Below are positions 2,561 through 59,722 of a stretch of DNA of 64,000 nucleotides, in pieces. A model generated the notes under the pieces. It was not told the DNA's origin and did no database searches. It saw nothing but the letters and a program-made list of their open reading frames with translations. The stretch is from Octopus vulgaris. Lineage: Eukaryota. Position 1 is the stretch's first letter, and each line of letters opens with the position of its first letter. The stretch lies in contig OX597816.1 of NCBI GenBank assembly GCA_951406725.2, positions 8,184,001 through 8,248,000 of the forward strand. Direction: 5' to 3'. The position numbers and the translations under genes were made by a program.

Positions 2561-2718
2561 AAAATAAAGGCGATGGTGAGGAATGGTAATAGTCCTAACC
2601 ATATCAACATTGAGTTTCTGGAAAATTGCAACAATAGAATTCAATGAAAACAGGAATGTTGTTTACAACATTCCAAAATATAGCAAAACAATTATTGCTT
2701 TAGGTGCGGCCAAAGTAA

Positions 2719-3335
2719 AGAATCCTTGATCTGTCCATCAAACCGTGACGTCCAAGCCGCATACCAATTGACTAAAATATCTCGTTGGAAAAAGCGGGAT
2801 AAATGCTAACCAAATTGACGCATTCACCAAACCGTGACATCTAAGCTACATATATATATATATATATATATAATTAGCGTTCGTAATACTTTTTTTCGTT
2901 CGGCTTAACAGCCCTTCTTGTCTTGTTATTTTCCTTGTCCTGTCCTTTACTGCTTATATTTTGTACTGTCGTTACTGTCCTGTTTTTGTTACCATTTTTA
3001 CCCCTCTGCAAAAAGATCTCAAATTTTATTTGATTTGCTTTTCGCAGGAAGGAAAGTTTCTTTCGAAGATACGTCTCGCCTTTACCTTCGAAACGTAGAG
3101 TAGATGAAACCATGGCGACTGAAGAAGGGTTTTTTTCCTTGTGTTATTTGTCCTGTACTCTATTTTTTTGTTGTTTAAGAAAAATGTCCAGTTCCTTGGG
3201 TTTGTGTCTATGTTTTCGTTTCTCATTGTGTTCGACGTTTTTTTGGTGTCCTGTATTCACATATGCGTGTATATATATATGTAGAGGTAGGTACGTACAT
3301 ATATGTATATATATATGCATATGTTTTATTTATTA

Positions 3336-3405
<70 letters not shown>

Positions 3406-3770
3406 AGTTTGTATGATGGTGTATAGAATATATTAATCAATGAAAATCTGATTTTCACATTTTATTATTTACAATTTTACAATAAGGAAATAATAAACTA
3501 GTATTTTCATGCATTACGCAATCATCAGGTTTATTTAGTGACAGTCGTGTTCCACATTTGACAACTGTAATGAAATGGTTAGATTTGTCCTTTAAGTACC
3601 CCCCGGAAAATCCGAAACTGTATTTCGACCAATCAGAATGTAGCTTAGATGTCACGGTTTGGTGAATGCGTCAATTTGGTTAGCATTTATCCCGCTTTTT
3701 CCAACGAGATACTTTAATCAATTGGTGTGCGGCTTGGACGTCACGGTTTGATGGACAGGTCAAGGATTCT
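2719..3770. repeat. Inverted repeat pair, about 133 bp arms (2719-2851 and 3638-3770)
   Basis: AGAATCCTTGA...CTAAGCTACAT is the reverse complement of ATGTAGCTTAG...TCAAGGATTCT with a few mismatches. Confidence 0.9.
3492..3535 (-). ncRNA. Minimal type I hammerhead ribozyme motif
   Basis: Minus strand AATAAAC-CTGATGA-TTGCGTAATGCAT-GAAA-ATAC-TA-GTTTATT: 7 bp stem I, intact core, short stem II, 1 bp stem III with tetraloop. Confidence 0.75.
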
Positions 3771-4064
3771 ATATATAAAAACCTGTCCTGTTCTTGTCAC
3801 ATTTTTTTCTTTCCTTGTTTTTACCCCTCGGCAAAGGAATTTTATTTAATTCTTTTGCAGGAAGGATTGATTCGACGGGTCGTGTTCTGTCCTTACCTTC
3901 GAAACACGCATGGAGTCGAACCAGGGACAGCTGATGAAGGGGAATTTTCCTTGCATTGTTTGTCTTGTACTCTGTTTTTTCGTTGTTAAAAAAAGTCCGT
4001 TTCCATGTTTGTTTTTATGTTTTCGTTTCTCGTTGAGTTCTACGTCTATTTGTGGTGTCCTGTA

Positions 4065-4142
<78 letters not shown>

Positions 4143-4249
4143 TCCGTAATAATGAAGGGTGAAATTAATTAATTTGGAATAATTATCAATTACACCAAGT
4201 AGTCTTCGGCATGTAAAAGCCTCATTCGAGGAAAATTTAAGTAATACTA

Positions 4250-4333
4250 AGCAATAAAGGGTTTAGCAACGAATTGCCTTACCACAGACCGAATTTAGAA
4301 ATAGCAGTCAAAGAGTTATAGCTATTTCTTCTA

Positions 4334-4414
<81 letters not shown>

Positions 4415-4505
4415 TTTTTAGTAGAAGAAATAGCTATAACTCTTTGACTGCTATTTCTAAATTCGGTCTGTGGTAAGGCAATTCGTTGCTAAACCCTTTA
4501 TTGCT
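4250..4505. repeat. 88 bp inverted repeat (4250-4337 / 4418-4505) around a (TA)n tract; same family as 11825-12546
   Basis: AGCAATAAAGGGTTTAGCAACG...CTACTAA and its reverse complement; matches 12350-12430. Confidence 0.9.
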
Positions 4506-4506
4506 A

Positions 4507-4583
<77 letters not shown>

Positions 4584-5238: not shown

Positions 5239-5538
5239 CATCATGCAAACTCGGATTTCCACCTTGGCATCCGAAACTCGGAGTTTTATCATGGCTACCG
5301 AATAATTGTCACATATTATATTTACATATATATATATATATTATAAATAGATGAGTGTATTTTACCTTGTTAACAATTAACACGGATAAATGAATGAATA
5401 GTTACCAGGGCAGCAAAATCTCACAAGTAAAGATGTTGTAACTCCTTGTTTATAAAGGTTGAAACTTCGTGTTTACGTTGAATATTTGAATAATAGGAAT
5501 AAAAATGGAGTCAACGCAGGTTTAAACAAGTATTTTTT

Positions 5539-5623
5539 CTTTCTACATATGTTTCAAAAATTCCACTGATACTTATTCAAAAGAATAAAAGGTATAAACA
5601 ATGCAATCTTCTCTTCGGGAAAG
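5539..5623 (-). ncRNA. Type I hammerhead motif (U4C core, long stem II), left palindrome arm
   Basis: Reverse complement of 6480-6564. Confidence 0.65.
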
Positions 5624-6479
5624 TGAAAAAACGAAACTTGTCAATACGACATTTTAGCAAAAAATGATGGATTCGTATAGCGATAGACAGAACGCTATTA
5701 ATATTGTTTAAAAAAACGTTATATGATATAACGTCATAAGTAGCTAACAGAAAGAGTAGGGATATTAATAGTGAATGTTAAATATAAAGGAAATTAAAGT
5801 CTAAACTATATATATAATGATAGAGACTACTTATATACACTAAATGTATGCTTTTGCCAATGCTTACATCTGTATGCTCGTTCTATAACCGTGTTTACTA
5901 GAGTATTTTTAGAAAAAATAATGAAAAATAGCTCAGAATTGCAGAGAAGACAGAATTTCTTGCCTTTGTCATATGGTATCGAAATTGAGAGGATCAACCA
6001 TTCCAAATGAAATTGTTCATTGTGGTCTTTTAAAAGACCACAATGAACAATTTCATTTGGAATGGTCTTTTAAAAGACCACAATGAATAATTTCATTTGG
6101 AATGGTTGATCCTCTCAATTTCGATACCATATGACAAAGGCAAGAAATTCTGTCTTCTCTGCAATTCTGAGCTATTTTTCATTATTTTTTCTAAAAATAC
6201 TCTAGTAAACACGGTTATAGAACGAGCATACAGATGTAAGCATTGGCAAAAGCATACATTTAGTGTATATAAGTAGTCTCTATCATTATATATATAGTTT
6301 AGACTTTAATTTCCTTTATATTTAACATTCACTATTAATATCCCTACTCTTTCTGTTAGCTACTTATGACGTTATATCATATAACGTTTTTTTAAACAAT
6401 ATTAATAGCGTTCTGTCTATCGCTATACGAATCCATCATTTTTTGCTAAAATGTCGTATTGACAAGTTTCGTTTTTTCA

Positions 6480-6564
6480 CTTTCCCGAAGAGAAGATTGC
6501 ATTGTTTATACCTTTTATTCTTTTGAATAAGTATCAGTGGAATTTTTGAAACATATGTAGAAAG
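6480..6564 (+). ncRNA. Type I hammerhead motif (U4C core, long stem II), right palindrome arm
   Basis: CTTTC-CCGAAGA-GAAGATTGCATTG...CAGTGGAATTTTT-GAAAC-ATAT-GTA-GAAAG: 5 bp stem I, stem III AC/GT with palindromic ATAT loop, GUA site. Confidence 0.65.
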
Positions 6565-6606
6565 AAAAAATACTTGTTTAAACCTGCGTTGACTCCATTT
6601 TTTATT

Positions 6607-6664
<58 letters not shown>

Positions 6665-10149: not shown

Positions 10150-11255
10150 ACATATAATTCATATTTACAGAAAACAAAAGACGATGGTGTAGGAACAACA
10201 AGAAAGTGTATTAGTTTAACGCTCGGGAAGAATGGAGAAGTCTTTTACGTTTCGAGTCTACCCTCTTCGAAAGAAAGGATTTAGACTGGGCAAAAAGGGG
10301 AGATAATGAAAAATAAATGGAGAGAGAAAAAATAATTTTTGTCGGGATTAACGGTTCAACATGACGAAAGACCCAGAAGGCTAAACGAAAGGGATATAAT
10401 TACGGTGATTGGGCAAACGAATTTATTCTCGCGTGTGTATGTGAGAATGGTGTGTGTGAGTGTGTATGTATGGATGGAGGTGAGTGTGTGAGTATGTATG
10501 TGTGGGGAGATGAAAAATATGTGGACCTGTGTGTGTATGTGTGTGACCCAGTGCGTACATTATGTGGAGTGATATGTGTTATATGTACTGGTATGTATGT
10601 GTGTATCCATATGGACGTGTGCATGTGTGCGATTATCAGGCCTTATGTGCTTGCGTGGGTGGGAGTGTGCATGTGGTGTGTGTTCTGTGTTGAATAGTGT
10701 GTAGGCTTGCTCGTATAGTGGTATGTGGGGCGACGCTACTGAAGGGTGTGTGTGGATGTGTGGATACTGGTGTGTGATGTGGATGATGAGAAGTATTCGG
10801 TGCCAGTGTGTGTGGAGTGGGGAGGTATTTGTGGGTGTGTGAAGTGTGTAATGAGTTGAATAGTGTGTATGGGTGTTCGTATAGTTGTGTTTCTATGGTG
10901 ACGGTACTGAGGTAGGCGGTATGCAGGAGTGTAGGTGGAGGGAAGTGACAGGTGAATGTAGGAGATGTATGGGAATCATTGTGAAGTGGTGTCACATGAA
11001 GAGATGTAGCGAGTTGAGCCCAAAAGGCGCGAAAGAACTAAGGGAGAAGATTAATTCCTGTTTACGGCGAAGGCGAGAGTCCGGGTCGCTCCTGCGCAGA
11101 GACAGTTCGAACACAGTCAAATGTTGTAGCGAATGACCGGTAGAGCGGAAATGGCGCGAGGCTGGGATGTCATTGCCGAGTGTTATGTCTCGAAGGTACT
11201 CCGCGACCCGATCAGCCAAGCGACGTCCCGTTTGACCGATGTACTGGGAAGGACA
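10150..11255 (-). mobile_element. Penelope-like element 3' end: GIY-YIG C-terminus plus long (CA)-rich 3' region with degenerate hammerhead
   Basis: CPSQYIGQTGRRLADRVAEYLRDI...PASRHF...RLRRKQELIFSL...PFGLN; HHR-like CTTT-CTTTCGA-AGAG..CTC-GAAACGTA-AAAG at 10242-10277 (-). Confidence 0.85.
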
Positions 11256-11261
11256 GATTGG

Positions 11262-11732
<471 letters not shown>

Positions 11733-11738
11733 CTATAT

Positions 11739-12540
11739 AAAAGGGGGATCTCAGTAAAAACACAGCACTTGAAAGGCAAACACAGACAGGTAAGAAAGAA
11801 AGAATGAAATGACGGCAATCTATCATTCGTTGCTAAACCCTTAATTACTTAGTATTACTTAAATTTTCCTCGAATGGGGCTTTTACATGCCGAAATCTAC
11901 TTGGTGTAATTGATAATTATCCCTAATTAATTAATTTCACCCTTTATTATTACTGATAACCATATTTTATCCCAGTAAATGACCGCAGCATTTTGTCTTG
12001 GCTACACGCGGGTGGAAGGGGGCTGGTGACACAAACTTTCATTCAAACTTTGAATTTCGTGGTACTGGTCATGCTTTGGCTCGCTCTGACACTGAGTTGA
12101 GATGATGCATTCTAGTATCTCAAAATTTAATATACAATTATTCATAATTGTAGTATCCTGCGCCGATGAGAGAAGAAGTTTGGGTAAAGTAGAATTTTCT
12201 AATTCTTATGCTCTCCTAAAACTTGATCTCGAAACGTACGTCCGTAGGTAACTTAAAATTGCATGATAGATTGCCGTCATTTCATTCTTTCTTTCTTACC
12301 TGTCTGTGTTTGCCTTTCAAGTGCTGTGTTTTTACTGAGATCCCCCTTTTAGTAGAAGGAATAGCTATATCTCTTTGACTGCTATTTCTAAATTCGGTGT
12401 GTTGGTGAGGCAATTCGTTGCTAAACCCTTAATTACTTAGTATTACTTAAATTTTCCTCGAATGGGGCTTTTACATGCCGAAATCTACTTGGTGTAATTG
12501 ATAATTATCCCTAATTAATTAATTTCACCCTTTATTATTA

Positions 12541-12546
<6 letters not shown>
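11739..12546 (+). mobile_element. HHR-bearing non-autonomous element: 588 bp unit plus 134 bp terminal redundancy plus 88 bp inverted 5' segment, within (TA)n
   Basis: Direct repeat 11825-11958 = 12413-12546; inverted repeat 11739-11826 / 12263-12350; HHR at 12157-12248. Confidence 0.8.
12157..12248 (+). ncRNA. Type I hammerhead motif (U4C core, 61 nt stem II domain)
   Basis: CCTGCG-CCGATGA-GAGA AG AAGTTT...AAACTT GA TCTC-GAAAC-GTAC-GTC-CGTAGG: 6 bp stem I, G10.1-C11.1, palindromic GTAC loop III, GUC site. Confidence 0.75.
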
Positions 12547-12587
<41 letters not shown>

Positions 12588-13112
12588 TGCTTAAAAGCCG
12601 CCCGACACGGTATATAGCTTTTAAGCAACTGACCCTGAATGGGAAGATCTGCAAACAGATCTCTGACTTATTTTCTAGAATTTGTTGCTTCCTCCAGAGT
12701 CATATCCCAATCATTATCGTATTCGTCGCAAAAAAAAAAAAAAAAATCAGGCCAAAAAAATTGCCCAAAACAATCGCATAATGAAAACATAGGAATCCAA
12801 AATTTCCGGATTGTAGGTCCGGATTCCGCTCGGAATATTATTAATTTACTCATGGAGTTAGCCTTTAGATTATAAAAATTGTTGTCGTTCAAAAAAAATT
12901 TGTTACCCAAACTTCGAATTCATATCAAATGATACAAATGAAATAACACAAACAGGAATACGCATGGACTGCTAAATACTGATTATTTGGAGTGGAACTT
13001 AGGGTTTTAGCTCGTACAATTCACACAGACACACACACACACATACATGATCTATATGTTTTTGTACAATGTATACGACATTGAAATTTTTAATTCTTCA
13101 GAAGCTTCTCAA

Positions 13113-19161: not shown

Positions 19162-19429
19162 TATATATATTTACACATACAGTTTATCTTATATATATAC
19201 ACAGCTTATCTAACCGACGCCTGTCGTTAGTTCTCTGTAGCTTAATAGAACATGATCCGTTGATCCGTTCTGCTTAAGCATCCAAATGCAGTTGTAACAC
19301 CATTTGCAAGGTTCCAAGGAAACAGAATGGTGGAACGTACATAGCAAACTAATTATATAAACTCGTGTTTATCGAAATTTCTCGTGTGTGTGTGTGGTGT
19401 ATATGTAGGCGTGTATTTGCACACACACG

Positions 19430-19462
<33 letters not shown>

Positions 19463-19698
19463 TTCTTTACTACCCACAAGGGGCTAAACACAGAGGGGAC
19501 AAACAAGGACAGACAAACGGATTAAGTCGATTCTATCGACCCCAGTGCGTAACTGGTACTTAATTTATCGACCCCGAAAGGATGAAAGGCAAAGTCGACC
19601 TCGGCGGAATTTCAACTCAGAACGTAACGGCAGACGAAATACAGCTACGCATTTCGCCCGGCGTGCCAACGTTTCTGCCAGTTCACCGCCTTACATAC

Positions 19699-19735
<37 letters not shown>

Positions 19736-20358
19736 TAGTTAATCCAAACATGAAAACACAAAGAGCAAACATAACAACGCGGGGACGTGGAACAAGTACA
19801 GAGTTATTGGACGCTCAGGAAAGGAAAGAAAGAAGGAGGATTTAACGTTTCGAGCGGAGCTCTTCGTCAGAAACATAGGAAAAGGAAAGGTCCAAGGAAG
19901 GGAAGACGGAGGAAAAAAAAGAAAATCGTCAACAATACACACGCGGTCACATATTGAAATGGTCACATATTGAAATATGTGAGGTTGGAAAGAAGACACT
20001 TCCCGCACACCCATGCTTGTGTCTTTATATATGCGACATGACTTTCTTTCTAAAATAATGTGTGTGTGAGAGTGTGTGTGCGTGCGTGCGCGTGCGTGTG
20101 TATGTGTGTGTAAGAGCGCGCGCGTATGTGTGCGTTTATACATATATGTATGTACACACATACATACACACATACGTACGTACATACATACATACATACA
20201 TATATGTATAAACGCACACACACGCACACACACACACACACGCATACTATTTTGGAAAGAAAGTCATGTCGCATATATAAAGACACAAGCGTGGGTGTGC
20301 GGGAAGTGTCTTCTTTCCAACCACACGGTTCCGGGTTCAGAAACCCGTCGTGTGTATA

Positions 20359-20399
<41 letters not shown>

Positions 20400-20683
20400 G
20401 TATGTGTATGTGTGTGCGTGTGTGTAAGTACGCGCCTACATATACACCACAGACACACACGAGAAATTTCGATAAACACGAGTTTATATAATTAGTTTGC
20501 TATGTACGTTCCACCATTCTGTTTCCTTGGAACCTTGCAAATGGTGTTACAACCGCATTTGGATGCTTAAGCAGAACGGATCAACGGATCATGTTCTATT
20601 AAGCTACAGAGAACTAACGACAAGCGTTGGTTAGATATGCTGTGTATATATATATAAGATAAACTGTATGTGTAAATATATAT
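19162..20683. repeat. Nested inverted duplications: about 268 bp (19162-19429 / 20416-20683) and about 75 bp (19983-20057 / 20248-20322)
   Basis: Reverse-complement matches with few mismatches; a SINE B (19460-19692, -) and an HHR element (19738-19978, -) lie between the outer arms. Confidence 0.9.
19840..19874 (-). ncRNA. Minimal type I hammerhead ribozyme motif (PLE type)
   Basis: GTTT-CTGACGA-A-GAGC TCC GCTC-GAAAC-GTT-AAAT; palindromic ACGT in place of stem III; host repeat 19738-19935 recurs at 24481-24662. Confidence 0.8.
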
Positions 20684-25336: not shown

Positions 25337-28300
25337 GGAAGTCGGCTGGACGTGTTTTTCGCTTCTCTGACCAACCCAGCGTGACAACGGAAAAACTGGA
25401 AGATCTACTGTTTTCTGGAGAGTGAACCTTTCAATAGTTTTAAAAAAAAATAAATGAATAAATAAATAAAAAGAAGGGAAAACTATGCCCGGAGATAAAA
25501 CTATCAACAAAAAAAATACAGACGAATACAGATCTGCTAGGAAACTATGCCCGGAGATAAAACTATCAACAAAAAAAATACAGACGAATACAGATCTGCT
25601 TAGGAAACTGCGCTACGAACAATGTTTACGTGCAGAAAATTCTAAACTGACAGATCCGTCTCTTAATGTAAGAGTCGAAGCTCGTCATGCTTCAATGTCA
25701 ACAAAACAACCTACAATCCGCGATGGTCGACGAGCGGACTACAAAAGACCACGTACCCGAAAATTGAACCAAAGTCTGATTGAAAAATCAGCTACTGGAT
25801 CAAATCTTCCCGACACACAGGAGCTGGACGTACCCCGCAACTGGAATATTCCAACAGATGGCCATCCATGCTCGTCACCAAACACTCAAAAGAAAAAGAA
25901 GGAAAAATGGACTAGGGAAGATAATAAAGAAGTTCTTGCAGCCTTCTATCATGCCATATATTTCCTCACAGATAAATCGAACACTATACAAACCTACATA
26001 AACTGGAGACTGAAACACCCTGAAGTAAGACCCTACATAGACAGTAACAAACTCGCCAACGTCAGAAGAAACATTATAAAAAACAATTACTGACTGAAGT
26101 AGAGATTGACCAAATTAAACAAGCAGTAACGGATAGAATGAACGAAGCTGCAGCTAAAGAAGATAATACAGAGGAAATGATTATAGACCAGCTCAGAGCT
26201 AATACAAACGAAGTAAGGATTGAAAGAGTTAGTATAAGTGATAGGCAAAGTGAAATACTCCCTGAACCAAATATAAACACTAAGACAGATGAACATCAAA
26301 TAGATGAAGAAAGTCACACAAATATTGACCCGACAGAACTACATGAGCTAAAAAGTCAAATCATGATTGAATGGCTGAAAATTAAAGAAACCAGTATGGA
26401 TGAACGTGATACACTCCCTAAAATACGCAAATCTAACCAAAACATGAAAATAATTGGTAAAATCCGGCTTGCACTTAAGGATATAATTTCAGCTAATGAT
26501 GTTGATATCACAGATCTCAACCACCTATACTATGCATCCGCGAAAATCTCAACGATCCTATGTGGTGAAAAGATTAGAAAACGGCAACATTTCCACAAAA
26601 AGCCTTCTTGGCAAGAGCGTTTGCAACAACAAATTAAACTATTTAGATCTGACATTGAATATTTGAAAAACCTTAAGGTTCATAAGACTACCAAACCTGC
26701 AAAAACCCAAAAACTAATGAAAAAATATAATATGAAAACTATACTTGATATTGATGCCTACCATAGAAACCATCAAGCAAAAGGTATCTGCTAAAGCTGC
26801 CCGCATAGCGAGGTATGAAAAGCGTATTAGATTCTTCAGGGACAACAACATGTTCAAAAATAACCCCAAACATTTTTACAGGAAGATAGGAAAAACAACA
26901 GTTACTGTAAAGTCTGTACCATCAAAAGAAGAAGTGCAGGGATTTTGGAATAAAATTTGGGCAGAAGAAAAAACACACAGCGAAAAGGCCCCCTGGATTG
27001 ATAGAATATCTAAAGAACTGGACTCCTTAGAAGAGCAAAAGTGGGAGGGTGTCAAGGTAGAAGATATAAGATCTGCTCTCAGGAGGTCAAGCAAATGGAA
27101 GTCTCCAGGAAAGGATAAAATCCCTAACTTTTGGTTGAATGCCTTCCCAGAGAGCCATGAACTGCTAGCAGAACTTTACAACGATGTTTTGCAACACCCT
27201 AGTAGGATGCCTCCTTGGCTAGTTAATGGGTTAACATTCCTGCTTCCAAAAAGTGAAGAAACAAATGAACCCAAAAACTATAGACCCATAACCTGCTTAA
27301 CAACTATGTATAAAACACTAACATCTGTCCTGACGGAATATACCTATAGTTTTTTGACAGACAGCAGCATATTCCCTAATGAACAGAAAGGATGTAAACG
27401 TGGATCCTACGGTTGTAAAGATCAACTACTCATCAATAAGATGATCTTAGAAGATTGTCACAAACGACACAAAAACTTATCAATAGGCTGGATAGACTAT
27501 AAAAAGGCTTTTGATAGCCTTCCACATAGCTGGATTAATAAATGCCTAGAAATGTATAAGATAGCACCTGCTCTGCGAAACTTTTTGTCTGTAAGTATGA
27601 GATCATGGAGAACCACACTAACTTTGAATAGTGACAATGAATCTCTAAATGCTGGTGATGTAAAAATTTCATGTGGCATTTTCCAGGGTGACTCACTATC
27701 ACCGCTCCTCTTCTGTTTAGCCTTAATACCTCTCTCAAAACTGCTCAATGACGCGCAGTACGGATATAAAATGTTTGATAAAAATATAAATCATCTCATT
27801 TACATGGATGATTTAAAGATCTTTGCAAAAAAAGACCAACAACTCAAGGGCTTACTAGCGATTGTCAAACAATTCAGTGATGACATCAGAATGCAATTTG
27901 GCCTCGATAAATGCGCAAAAGCTACCTTTATCAAAGGAAAAATGACAGAAACATCTAACGTTAACCTTAACCAGCAGAATGTCATAAAAGAATTAGACCC
28001 AGCAGAGAACTACAAGTATCTAGGGGTAATTGAAGGAGAAGGAATAAGGCATTCAGAGATGAAGGAAAGGATCAGGAGAGAATGCTATCGCAGAGTAAGA
28101 GCAATACTCAAGACAGAGCTGAATGCGAGAAACAGGATCGAAGCGATCAATGCATTAGCCATAACCAGTCGTGACTTACAGTTTCAGTATCGTTAACTGG
28201 TCAATTACTGAAATATGTAATCTTGACAGAAAAATACGAAAATTGTTGACAATGCATAGAATGCACCACCCTAAGGCAGATACAGAACGACTTTATCTGC

Positions 28301-29565
28301 CAAGAAAAGAGGAGGCCGTGGACTTTTACAACTGGCAATAACAATGAAGATTGCTACAATTGGCCTAGACACCTACCTGAAAAACTCTGAGGACTGGATG
28401 TTAAAACTTGTCTCAAAACATGAAAACAAGAAAGCATCATACTCAGTAACAAAACAGGCAAAGGAATATCTAAGTGAATTCCGAATACAACAAATTTCGG
28501 AATTAGAGATAGACATACAAGAAACAGGCACAGAAAAAGCTAAGCGCATGAAAACCCGTGCTAAATCTGCGGCCTTAGATATTCTGAATGATAAATGGCA
28601 AGAAAAACCTCTCTATGGCAAATACCCAAAGAGAGCAAATAATGCAGATGTTGACAAAGCCCTGACCCATCAATGGCTAATGGCCTCTGGCTTAAAATCT
28701 GAAACAGAGGGGTTTATCATAGCAGCTCAAGATCAATGCCTACCAACAAGAAACTACCAGGTCAACATATTAAAGATCAGAAGCAGTCCAACGTGTCGTG
28801 TTTGCAAGCAACAAAATGAAACCATTGACCATGTGGTCTCCAAGTGCAGTCTTCTAGCGCCTACAGAGTATCTCAACAGGCACGATAGAGCTGCACAATA
28901 TATTCACTGGGTAATCTGTAAAAACCTGGATTTGCCCCATGAAAAAAACTGGTGGGAACACAAACCACCCCCAGTGCTTGAAAATGACCACATCTCACTC
29001 CTCTGGAACTTCACCATTCAAACTGACAGAAAGATAGATGCAAATAGGCCAGACATCATATTGAAAGACTTCAAACAAAGAACATGCCTCCTCATTGATA
29101 TGACTGTCCCAATCGATATAAACGTATCTGTCAAGACCTACCAAAAACTGAGCAAATATAAAGATCTTGAAATAGAAATCAGCAAAATGTGGAAGCTGAA
29201 GACTAAAACAATACCTGTTGTCATAGGTGCCCTGGGAATGATAGCAAAAGGGGCTGATAGCTACCTAACTCAGATACCAGGAAACCCAAAAATGGCAGAA
29301 ATTCAAAAGATAGTGCTCATGGGAACTGCTCATATCCTACGCAAAATACTTTCTATGTAATCTCAAGGTTTAAAACAAACATAATTTTCGGTTTAAAAAA
29401 AAAAAATCTTTTTTTTTAGACATTCATTAGTACAACACCCCACCCCCCAAATATATGGCACACTAGGCATAACAACAACATGAACTTCCAACCCTGTTGT
29501 CTCTTGAGGTCTCTGGGTGAGACTTGGAGCCAACTTGTACTAATATAAAGCAAAAGTCAAACATA

Positions 29566-33650: not shown

Positions 33651-34664
33651 ATATCTATCTCTATAAGTAGTAGGAACTTATTAAACATCATGAGTGTTCT
33701 GAGTTCTAGACCGCTTGAATACCTGGAAAAAGAAATGATGAAAGATCATTGCCGACATTAAGATTAAGTCCTTAAGTGTGTAATCCTCCAGGGTTACCAT
33801 CAACAGACTTACACTTCTGTTTTGATAAGTTCTTAGCGTCGGTAGAGTGAGAGTAGGTTCTCTACAAGCCGAATAAGCGATGCAGGTTCGACTCCAGACG
33901 AACTATTTCATTCTTTTATCTACCATGTATCTGCAGATTTCAAATGTAGTCGATTGCCTGGTCATGGATGGACTCTACTTGCATATTACATAGAAATTTA
34001 ACAGTAATGTCTCACTTGCCTGTTTGATGAAGATGTTTCGGGACATAATCTTTTAAAACTTAAAAAATTCCTACATTGAATTTTAACGATATTTGCCTAA
34101 CGGATATAAAAGTAGTTGTTCATGCCTTTCCATGAAGTTACATAAGGCGCAGATGTGACTGTGTGGTAAGAAGTTTGCTTCTCAACTATATGGTTTCGGG
34201 TTCAGACCCACTACGTGACACCTTGGAAAAATGTTTTCTAATACAGCCTTGGGCCAACCGAAAGCTTGTGGGTGGATTTAGTAGATCAAAACTGAAAGAA
34301 GCCCGTCGTACAATATATATACATACATGTAAAATTTAAAATCGGATAAAATCTTTATAAGAATTTATCAAGTAGTCAGCGTGAAAAACCTGATAAGGGG
34401 AAAATTATAATTATTCCCTTTAAATATTACCTTTAAATTCATTTATATTAAAGGCATTAATACACATAATTATTCCCTTTAAATATATTTATTTCTATTA
34501 AGGGCATTATTATGGTGGTTTTAACTTTAAGAGTCCCTCATAGCGTGAGGCATTTATCTGTATTAATGCCCTTAATATAAATCCATCCATAAATACATAT
34601 ATATATACGTATATATATGCATGCATGCATGTATGTATGTATGTATGTATGTATGTATGTATGT

Positions 34665-34812
34665 ATGTATGTATGAGAGTATGTGTGTTTGTGTTTGTCA
34701 CACTACCGCTTCATAACCGGTGTTGATGTGTTTACGTCCCGGCAATTGAGCAGTTCGGAAAAAGACCCCAATAGAATAAGTGCCAGGCTTTACTAAAAAA
34801 AAAATTTTTTTT

Positions 34813-34887
<75 letters not shown>

Positions 34888-35765
34888 AATAACAAGTACT
34901 GGTTTCAATTCGTTCGATTAAAATTCTTCAAGGCGGTGCCCCAGCATGGCCGTAGTCTAATGGCTGAAACAAATAAAATATAAAGCCATGTGTTCGATAT
35001 GAATTATCTATATCCAGAAACCTAACCATATCGTCACTTTAGTTCACACAGAAGTTGGTCTCTTCTGTCCGGCCGTTGCCAACAACTCGAAGTACGACAG
35101 GAACAGAATTCTGAAAAATAAAAGAAAAATATGTTCTTGGGTGTGGTACATATTCAGAATAACTCTCATGAAGTTTCAAGAAGAATATCTCAACGTTTCT
35201 TTTAAGTAAACCAAAACTTTGATCGTGGATATTTGCGTTTCAATATTGAAACATTACCAGGGCGGTGAGCTGGCAGAATCGTTAGCATGCAGAATCGTCT
35301 GCCTTTACGTTCTGAGTTCAAATTCCGCCGAGGTCGATTTTGCCTTTAATCCTTTTCGGAGTCAATCAATTAAGTACCAGTTCCGTACTGGAGTTGACCT
35401 AATCTACTGGCCCCCTCCCTCAAAATTTCGGTCCTTGTGCCTAGAGTAGAAAAGGATATTGAAACATTACCCAAACTTCCCGATTTGAGAAATTAATTGG
35501 AAGAGAAACGGAATTCCTTTTACTAGCTTGTTTACCATAAACTTTACATATTTAAGTTGTTGCTTTTCTTTTATAATTCCCCCAACGGGAGAGACCAACT
35601 TCTGTGTGAACTAAAGTGACGATATGGTTAGGTTTCTGGATATAGATAATTCATATCGAACACATACCTTTATATTTTATTTGTTTCAGCCATTACACTA
35701 CGGCCATGCTGGGGCACCGCCTTGAAGAATTTTAATCGCACGAATTGAAACCAGTACTTGTTATT

Positions 35766-35836
<71 letters not shown>

Positions 35837-35978
35837 TCTCTTAGTAACGCCTGACACTTATTGTAAGGGGTCTTCTTCCGAACTGCTCAATTTCCGGGAT
35901 GTAAACACATCAACACCGGTTATCAAGCGGTAGTGTGGGACAAACACAAACACATACTCTCATACATACACATATGTA
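34665..35978. repeat. Inverted duplication of about 390 bp (34665-35062 / 35591-35978) containing a SINE A 3' half, (GA)n and unique flank
   Basis: Includes non-SINE flank TGTGTTCGATATGAATTATC...GAAGTTGGTCTC in both orientations. Confidence 0.9.
35259..35456 (+). mobile_element. SINE family B with 16 bp TSD
   Basis: ATATTGAAACATTACC at 35243-35258 and 35457-35472. Confidence 0.9.
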
Positions 35979-35982
35979 TGTG

Positions 35983-36039
<57 letters not shown>

Positions 36040-42964: not shown

Positions 42965-44413
42965 AAGAAGGTTTAGAAACAGGGCAATAAACTCAGCCTT
43001 TTGGCGCCGAAGAAATAGTGAAAGACAAGTGGAAGAGAAGGAAAATTAGAAAATACAGGATTTGGCGTCACCGTTAAGAGAATCAACTCACAGCCACAGG
43101 CATCGAAATGCTGTAAATATTAAAATGTATAAAGAATAAATAAATAAACGAAAACCAAAAAAACAATGTTGGTGCGTAAAAAATACAAAAACTACGCACA
43201 AAATGAAAAAAACAATTGCGTGGGCGTATATAAACACATACATAAAATGTATTAAAAAAACATAAAAAAATATATTATATTAATACTTTTTAAAATATAA
43301 AGCATTTGAAAATTAGAAAATGGTTTCAACGAAAATAAAATAAGAAGGCTCAGAGAAAATATGTAAACATGGAGCAATCCTGCAAAATGTATGTGTAAAA
43401 GTGTGCAAACGTATATACGATTATAAGTAGGAGTAAAAATGAAATTTATAGATATTGATCAATAGAAATAAAATACAAGAAGAAATGTTTCCTTCTCGAG
43501 CCACGCCAGGCTCATAAGGGCCGGTTTCCCGGTTTCAATGGCGTTTGATATTCCCCACCTGGATGTGACACTAGGGTTGCTGCTTTGGTGTTAGGGTAAG
43601 GTGTTAGAAGTGGTGACATAATAAAGGTGGAGGTTTCAAATCTCTGCCAGGAAGTTCATTTCGGGCGTTGTGAGTGTTTATTGAGCGAAAACACCTAAAA
43701 GCTCCACGAGGCTCCGGCAGGGGATGGTGGTGATCCCTGCTGTACTCTTTCACCACAACTTTCTCTCACTCTTACTTCCTGCTTCTGTTGTACCTGTATT
43801 TCAAAGGGCCGGCCTTGTCACTCTCTGTGTCACGCTGAATATCCCCGAGAACTACGTTCAGGGTGCACGTGTCTGTGGAGTGCTCAGCCACTTACACGTT
43901 AATTTCACGAGCAGGCTGTTCCGTTGATCGGATCAACCGGAACCCTCGTCGTCGTAACCGACGGAGTGCTTCCAGGGACACTAGTCTGTCGCAGGGTTAT
44001 TTCTTTTTGTCAGCTGAGTGAACTGGAGCAACGTGAATTGAAGTGTTTCGCTCAAAAACACAATGCATCACCTGGTCCAGGAATCGAAACCACAATCTTA
44101 CGATCATGGGTCCAATACGTGCAAGTGGCTAAGCACTCCACAGACACGTGTACCCTAAACGTAGTTCTCGGGGGAGATTCAGCGTGACACAGAGAGTGAC
44201 AAGGCCGGCCCCTTGAAATACAGGTACAACAGAAACAGGAAGTAAGAGTGAGAGAAAGTTGTAGTGAAAGAGAACAGCAGGGTTCGCCACCCACCCCCTG
44301 CCGGAGCCTCGTGGAGCTTTAGGAGTTTTCGCTCAATATACACTCACAACGAAACAGCGATCCTATGACCGCGAGTCCGCTGCCGTAACTACCGGGCCAT
44401 TGCGCCCCCACCC

Positions 44414-58823: not shown

Positions 58824-59722
58824 TTGGGTTGTCCGGAAAGTTCGTGCCGATTTATAGTAGCTTACCTTTCGACTTATTTTAGAACATGTTTGAGTCCATA
58901 AAATAGGATTTGACTACACCTCCATTTAGAGCACTGTTTAAGCTATCTTTTCGTGGAAGAAGGTTTATGTTCCTATAACCTGTGTTAATTCTGTAACCCT
59001 TTAAAATGGAAGATAAGAAAGTTCATTTTCGGCACTTGATGCTTTTCTTTTTTCCGTAAAGGGAAAAATGCCTCACAAGCAACCAAAGAAATATACGCAA
59101 TTTACGGTGATGTTTCTTTATCCGAAAGAACTGTACGGAAGTGGTTCGCAAGGTTCCAAACTGGAGATTGTAGCCTTATTGATAAAGAGCAATCAGGCAG
59201 ACCATCCACTACAGATGGTGACCAAATCAAGTCATTAATTGAGAATAACCCACATTGCACAACCCGAGAATTGGCAGAAAGCTTCAACCTATCAAAATCC
59301 GTCGTTCATGAGCACCTGGTAAAGCTTAGGTACACAAATCGCTACGATATTTGGGTACCACATGAGTTGAGTGAGAAGAACCTTTTGGATCGCATTTCCA
59401 TCTGTGAACGGAATGAAAACGCGCCTTTTTAAAAGCAAATTGTGACAGGTGATGAGAAATGGATTATCTACCGAAATGTTCAGAGAAAGCGACCCTGGAG
59501 TAAGCGACATGAGCCACCTTAGCCACCCCAAAAGCGATTCTTCACCCTAAAAAAGTCTTGCTTTGTGTCTGGTGGGATTGGAAAGGAATTCTGTACTATG
59601 AGCTCCCAAGAAACCAGACAATTAATTCTGAGAAATACTGCGCACAAGTGGACGAGTTAAAAGCAGCAATTCAAGAGAAACGTCCAGAATTGGCCAACAG
59701 GAAGGGTGTTGTTTTCCAAGAC
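58824..59722 (+). mobile_element. mariner (Tc1/mariner) transposon, 3'-truncated, pseudogenised (mellifera-like)
   Basis: TA followed by TTGGGTTGTCCGGAAAGTTC TIR; from ATG 59006 MEDKKVHFRHLM...SGRP...WVPHEL...IVTGDEKWI...HPKKVLLCVWWD with frameshifts and a stop. Confidence 0.92.

Follow-up and report, generated by a model that had tools for sequence, protein, structure and literature searches.

A young 588-bp hammerhead-bearing element in Octopus vulgaris, best filed with the non-LTR retrozymes, and its probable insertion by twin priming between (TA)n runs

Introduction

What kind of event places a non-coding unit, a repeat of its own start and an inverted piece of its interior side by side between two (TA)n runs? 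The question is raised by an insertion at 11727-12584 of a 64,000-nt stretch of the Octopus vulgaris genome (contig OX597816.1, positions 8,184,001 to 8,248,000 of the forward strand), which is called the window throughout. The literature is cited here for its accessible sections. In these, Penelope-like elements (PLEs) are described as leaving partial tandems, inverted 5' copies and a bias to (TA)n as insertion marks, with Neptune, Naiad and Hydra as (TA)n-targeting EN+ clades, with non-autonomous forms such as MRC1, and with Octopus families of Naiad and Hydra given as (TA)n-targeting (PMC8557442). The origin of the tandem and inverted structures is called open (PMC8557442, PMC11167929), and the published case for a mobilisation of animal retrozymes by PLEs is based on shared ribozymes, co-occurrence and sequence similarity (PMC8557442, PMC11167929); retrozymes have been proposed as PLE derivatives (bioRxiv 10.64898/2026.07.22.740005). 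Here we present a description of the insertion, of a relative in the same window and of the family in public contigs, together with the reading that we hold to be rather probable, namely that the young copy is a non-LTR retrozyme placed by twin target-primed reverse transcription, with an enzyme of presumed Penelope-like RT/GIY-YIG class and a likely circular template.

Structure of the insertion

The features of the insertion are as follows (window coordinates, strand, description).

11670-11731, no strand: left (TA)n target run, with (CA)n at 11612-11669 ahead of it
11727-11736, minus strand: probable beginning of the inverted arm, equal to 12361-12370 in reverse complement, after which 9 nt (12352-12360) are skipped and one base is extra
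11738-11826, minus strand: inverted arm, exact reverse complement of 12263-12351
11825-12412, plus strand: 588-bp non-coding unit, circularly permuted, 36.9% G+C
12157-12248, plus strand: predicted type I hammerhead (sequence motif)
12249-12352, plus strand: intron-like stretch, GT...AG, 104 nt, pyrimidine-rich, as read from the sequence
12413-12546, plus strand: terminal redundancy, pseudo-LTR-like, exact repeat of 11825-11958, its end at 12546 being one at which copies of the family recurrently stop on the 3' side
12545-12584, no strand: right (TA)n target run

The two direct repeats (11825-11958 and 12413-12546) are identical at 134 of 134 positions with a period of 588, exactly as an earlier note on this DNA had it when it described a 588-bp unit and a 134-bp repeat of the unit start between (TA)n runs; the copy at 11738-12546 thus comprises 1.23 units and one ribozyme motif. 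The inverted copy that the same note gave as 88 bp is present and exact, but it measures 89 bp (89/89 identical to 12263-12351 as reverse complement) and likely extends by 10 further bases, i.e., the arm likely begins at 12370, with 9 nt skipped. Of the 40 (TA)n runs of at least eight units in the window, only one ends in the manner of 11727-11736, with a match to the inverted arm. At the other end of the arm its last two bases (AT) overlap the unit start, which gives a 2-nt microhomology. Because no mismatch was found over the 223 duplicated bases (bound on divergence about 1.3%, 95%), the insertion is young, and the recent event proposed from the apparent identity of the repeats is confirmed.

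To the right of the (TA)n run lies a separate high-copy repeat (12589-12700), which opens with a short inverted repeat and has a fixed boundary at 12610 in many public contigs.

The family in public contigs

The element was found in 20 of the 24 public runs listed, which derive from nine studies and three organisms and none of which is recorded as RNA. Four of the 20 runs were examined in detail (X1, X2, X4 and X8, all from organism A, with X1, X2 and X8 of DNA type); they yielded 2393, 1293, 90 and 3547 contigs, respectively, some of which fall on the unrelated repeat at 12610-12700. X4 may be an RNA run and is not counted here as evidence of expression. Coverage of the unit is complete from end to end; in X1, X2 and X8 the summed depth, which is not a copy number, ranges from tens of thousands to hundreds of thousands and shows that the family is abundant. 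Since both junctions, 11958/11959 and 12412/12413, are spanned by contigs with at least 31 letters on each side (X4 records 18 and 19; X2 record 14), the unit closes on itself and leaves no room for an ORF; the contigs are too short to display arrays, and in them the junction of a circle would look the same as that of a tandem.

Among the 24 of 355 loose ends listed, (TA)n follows the site equivalent to 11958 in 12 (X1) and 20 (X8) contigs, 11965 in 22 contigs (X8) and 12443 in two contigs (X4). The right end of the family thus recurs at two sites 7 nt apart (11958 and 11965), each joined to (TA)n, and four further joints, on the opposite strand or displaced and represented by one contig apiece, point to other breakpoints. 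The inversion junction of the 11738-12546 copy was absent from the 32 contig pieces and five joints listed. Both 134-bp repeats carry alleles that are rare in the family, the other letter accounting for 91-97% of depth at 11921/12509 and for 63-100% at 11877/12465; therefore a single molecule, or a single source locus, served for both passes. The element had no exact-pattern match in either of two scans of metagenome contigs.

The relative at 4141-4510

A second copy in the window consists of three parts.

4141-4337, minus strand: sense arm, covering 12349-12546 and extending to the alternative end (equivalent to 11965)
4338-4409, no strand: (TA)36 spacer between the arms
4416-4510, plus strand: inverted arm, covering 12347-12443

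The relative with an inverted piece of its own and a different breakpoint, as reported earlier, is real. Its sense arm is identical to the reverse complement of 12349-12546 at 184 of 197 aligned bases, and its two arms are identical to each other over 88 nt, which argues that they come from one template. The inner ends of the arms agree within 2 nt (12347-12349); at its inner end the inverted arm has two bases which match the template and are missing from the other arm, so that it was hardly copied from the latter, and it shows a 1-nt slip beside its outer end. The hammerhead is absent from 4141-4510. A strong helix that would have stopped both arms at 12347-12349 was considered and dropped, as the stretch is predicted to be unpaired or half paired. 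Both window copies share the two-armed form with an adjacent inverted 5'-truncated copy, and both have (TA)n on either side.

It is very improbable that the unit is instead the pseudo-LTR end of an autonomous PLE, or a satellite-like repeat, and owes its arrangement to DNA recombination or mis-assembly. Nine X1 contigs hold a different sequence before 12351 (agreement 0.62) and depth climbs behind 12340, for which reason there may be a partner with the last 200 bp in common; against this stand the bridged junctions, the closure of the unit at 588 bp and the same two-armed form in an independent relative.

Coding potential, fold and hammerhead motif

The longest stop-free stretch in the closed 588-bp unit is 67 aa. 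A Pfam scan of two of the seven stop-free stretches listed for the unit gave no match, and the unit holds no ORF for an RT or a GIY-YIG endonuclease. Its circular fold is predicted at -154.2 kcal/mol as compared with -122.0 +/- 6.3 kcal/mol for 40 shuffles (z = -5.1). Family variants break confident predicted pairs in 5 of 36 cases versus 10.4 +/- 2.4 expected (P 0.016), a weak signal that derives from 40 of the 61 variant rows (four outside the unit being dropped), from variants that are not independent and from the fold of the 11825-12412 copy. The intron-like stretch starts exactly where stem I of the hammerhead ends, and stops on its 3' side at the point where the relative's arms have their inner ends and the nine X1 contigs their loose-end site; no spliced joint for 12249-12352 was found in the four runs (X1, X2, X4, X8), and two X4 contigs span it unspliced.

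The hammerhead motif is composed of a 6-bp stem I, the core CCGAUGA (12163-12169), a 61-nt stem II (12170-12230), GAAA at 12231 and a palindromic stem III of 8 nt, with the predicted cut after 12242. Among 3000 dinucleotide-shuffled versions of the unit, one contained such a motif. The short stem I and the extended stem II had been recognized in the earlier note, which overlooked that the core is the U4C variant and not the canonical one. At the gathering score Rfam does not report a hammerhead at 12157-12248, nor is one among the 17 matches obtained at E up to 10; that a U4C core with a 61-nt stem II is missed by Rfam means that standard searches undercount such ribozymes.

According to the accessible literature, U4C cores have lower activity in vitro yet support viroid infectivity, palindromic stems III permit dimeric hammerheads (PMC3088659), and eight of nine Xenopus retrozymes were without cleavage in vitro (bioRxiv 10.64898/2026.07.22.740005). 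The predicted ribozyme may be a weak one in view of the U4C core, of a catalytic fold predicted to lie 3.9 kcal/mol above the best fold of the monomer, and of a G to A change at 12172. This change accounts for 65-92% of depth in the three DNA-type runs and is among the 40 of 61 variant rows; it would break a pair of stem II, unless a partner change lies outside those rows. The canonical U4 is present at 28-55% of depth in the DNA-type runs (about 30% in X1, 29% in X2 and 55% in X8), and in stem I a G-U pair is often replaced by A-U in the public contigs (29-69% of depth). Other loose hammerhead-like matches in the window (6485 on the plus strand, 5618 on the minus strand, 45642 on the plus strand) gave unconvincing folds and were treated as chance.

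Probable insertion by twin priming

With the predicted cut as origin, unit positions 21-128 belong to the inverted arm and 171-588 followed by 1-304 to the main arm, i.e., the inverted part maps just upstream of the 5' end of the main arm, with a gap of 42 nt. A '5' deletion + 5' inversion + internal deletion' is the published twin-priming pattern in the sections seen (bioRxiv 10.1101/2024.08.27.596794). In both window copies the outer ends are RNA 3'-side ends joined to (TA)n on both flanks. At each of the four ends (11958, 11965, 12443 = 11855, and 12370) stands an alternating TA word, of 3, 4, 3 and 5 nt, respectively, where TA runs of at least 3, 4 and 5 nt occupy 23, 5 and 2 of the 588 positions; the match is partly due to the drawing of boundaries beside (TA)n, and the end at 12370 depends on accepting the 9-nt skip. 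Two inverted arms could be mapped, their outer ends differ, and no fixed second start is evident. Twin priming is favored over a fold-back because each outer end is a 3'-side end of the RNA placed on a TA microhomology, and because the inverted arm lies upstream with a 42-nt gap.

On the reading that we hold to be rather probable, the enzyme would nick both strands of the (TA)n run. The cDNA primed from one nick would start inside the RNA on a short TA word, 304 nt past the cut site, and run 722 nt, once round the circle plus 134 nt; the cDNA primed from the other nick would start on another TA word, 128 nt past the cut site, slip once and extend about 100 nt toward the cut site. The two cDNA ends would then be joined through the 2-nt microhomology, leaving the 42-nt gap. 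Internal initiation at two sites with cleavage and extension of both strands is known for the PLE of the anole (PMC11167929, as far as accessible), the initiation of which has no need of target homology.

A rather improbable alternative, part of the original proposal of a template switch or fold-back during integration, is that a 722-nt first cDNA annealed on itself, copied about 100 nt and was joined to (TA)n by microhomology repair. The inner junction with its 2-nt microhomology would suit such a step, as would the palindromic (TA)36 spacer of the relative, which could form a hairpin, and a near-perfect palindrome with 559-bp arms elsewhere in the window. On the other side, two bases offer little annealing across a loop of 436 nt, the outer end falls on one of only two five-base TA words among 588 positions, small slips adjoin the outer ends of both inverted arms, and the inverted arm of the relative keeps template bases missing from its partner. 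Twin priming fits the geometry of both window copies better.

Under twin priming the nature of the template is the next question. No scar marks the point at which the main arm crosses the ribozyme cut site, and the arm continues past its own start; the template must therefore have been either circular or, if linear, at least 872 nt long. The same element and enzyme acting on linear RNA, read through from a tandem source locus and with one hammerhead uncut, is an unlikely but noteworthy variant. It agrees with the end of the inverted arm 20 nt before the predicted cut site, as near a 5' end, although such a distance is not unlikely by chance. The weak U4C core and the dimer-type stem III would leave multimers uncut, but the canonical core makes up 28-55% of depth in the three DNA-type runs. 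Likewise, uncleaved RNA is reported as the dominant substrate of the anole PLE (PMC11167929, accessible part), whereas circles are the form in which retrozymes accumulate in coral, mussel and axolotl (PMC7229834, accessible part). The circle is only narrowly preferred to a read-through dimer as the template.

In its most far-reaching form, which we put forward tentatively as possible but short of probable, the insertion directly records how a Penelope-type enzyme copied one covalently closed 588-nt ribozyme RNA on either side of a break in (TA)n, with each nick priming on a short TA word within that RNA. If this is true, twin priming on a circle would account in general for pseudo-LTRs and inverted 5' copies and be the way in which animal retrozymes move. 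As the family is young, abundant and short, and its copies record both priming sites and the overhang, its mobilisation can be tested by counts of breakpoints.

Comparison with retrozymes

With the metazoan non-LTR retrozymes, as described in the accessible text (PMC7229834; bioRxiv 10.64898/2026.07.22.740005), the unit has in common that it is non-coding, low in G+C and equipped with a type I hammerhead, as well as a predicted strong self-pairing, abundance and head-to-tail closure. The class is already known and the 588-bp family is a likely member of it; on the best reading of the sequence, the element is filed with the non-LTR retrozymes, i.e., as a non-autonomous PLE, with self-cleavage and a circular RNA as predicted properties. 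The definition of retrozymes in those sources asks for the ribozyme in at least two consecutive tandem units, whereas the 11738-12546 copy has 1.23 units and one ribozyme. Unlike retrozymes as described there, the element has an inverted arm and targets (TA)n, and it is further set apart by its U4C core and 61-nt stem II. That the unit is larger than typical metazoan retrozymes, as the earlier note had it, is true against the 170-400 nt given for invertebrate circles (PMC7229834) but not against the wider published range of 51-972 bp (bioRxiv 10.64898/2026.07.22.740005). Literature titles and abstract openings, a search outside which most subscription papers lie, gave no cephalopod retrozymes and no twin priming of retrozymes, and the word 'ribozyme' is absent from the main text of an Octopus repeat annotation (PMC13282606).

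Comparison with Penelope-like elements and L1

The EN+ PLEs, in the accessible part of their description (PMC8557442), share with the element the pseudo-LTR partial tandem and the adjacent inverted 5'-truncated copy, which the earlier note had correctly named as PLE marks, and in addition the microsatellite target, the lack of a discernible target-site duplication and a hammerhead in the repeated unit. Unlike them, the element has no RT or GIY-YIG ORF; its 3' ends lie 7 nt apart (among the 24 of 355 loose ends listed), as compared with a PLE tail of 30-40 bp, and none of the File S2 hammerheads seen has its U4C core. Five short words of the element gave no match in the consensus files of the supplement of that paper, and the part of the Hydra-1_Obim consensus without its 3' end showed no likeness to the element by eye. 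An autonomous PLE sharing the 3' terminus was found neither in the window nor in the metagenome contigs nor in that supplement. The proposal of a non-autonomous, PLE-mobilised element accordingly holds for its non-coding, high-copy, (TA)n-targeted and two-armed character, while its autonomous partner was not found and the mobilisation by a PLE is what we infer.

Within the sections seen of the work on the anole (PMC11167929), copies of the Poseidon element PAc of Anolis likewise end inside the RNA, downstream of the hammerhead and at two neighboring sites, and the two systems share an AT-rich target and extension of both strands; the PAc initiation sites are without target homology, whereas the four ends described here have 3-5 nt of TA microhomology. 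L1 twin priming, as far as its source is accessible (bioRxiv 10.1101/2024.08.27.596794), likewise combines a 5' inversion with an internal deletion, a short microhomology at the inner junction and a longer first arm. Unlike L1, the element has no poly(A) tail and its first arm is internally primed; this arm passes its own start, a product that linear L1 RNA cannot give.

Other features of the window

A decayed GIY-YIG-like frame is present at 2007-2330 on the plus strand (Pfam GIY-YIG, E 0.0084, below the cut-off). The stretch at 10992-11417 on the minus strand, without a Pfam match, is presumably another such frame. Both are possibly remnants of PLEs with a C-terminal endonuclease, and neither has DNA similarity to the element. 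A frameshifted LINE-type element (25470-29360, plus strand) with RVT_1 and zf-RVT matches is preceded by a 62-bp tandem repeat, and a Mariner-type transposase fragment (59040-59432, plus strand) matches the Mos1 HTH (E 1e-13).

The near-perfect palindrome at 5482-6621 has two 559-bp arms that are 98% complementary, a 22-nt spacer inside a 40-bp tandem and (TA)n at its right end; it may have arisen as a fold-back, or else a different family inserted there in two-armed form. Inverted pairs of 136-470 bp with 87-96% identity, each within 1.5 kb, are also located at 34597-36038, 19163-20683, 43666-44351 and 2716-3773.
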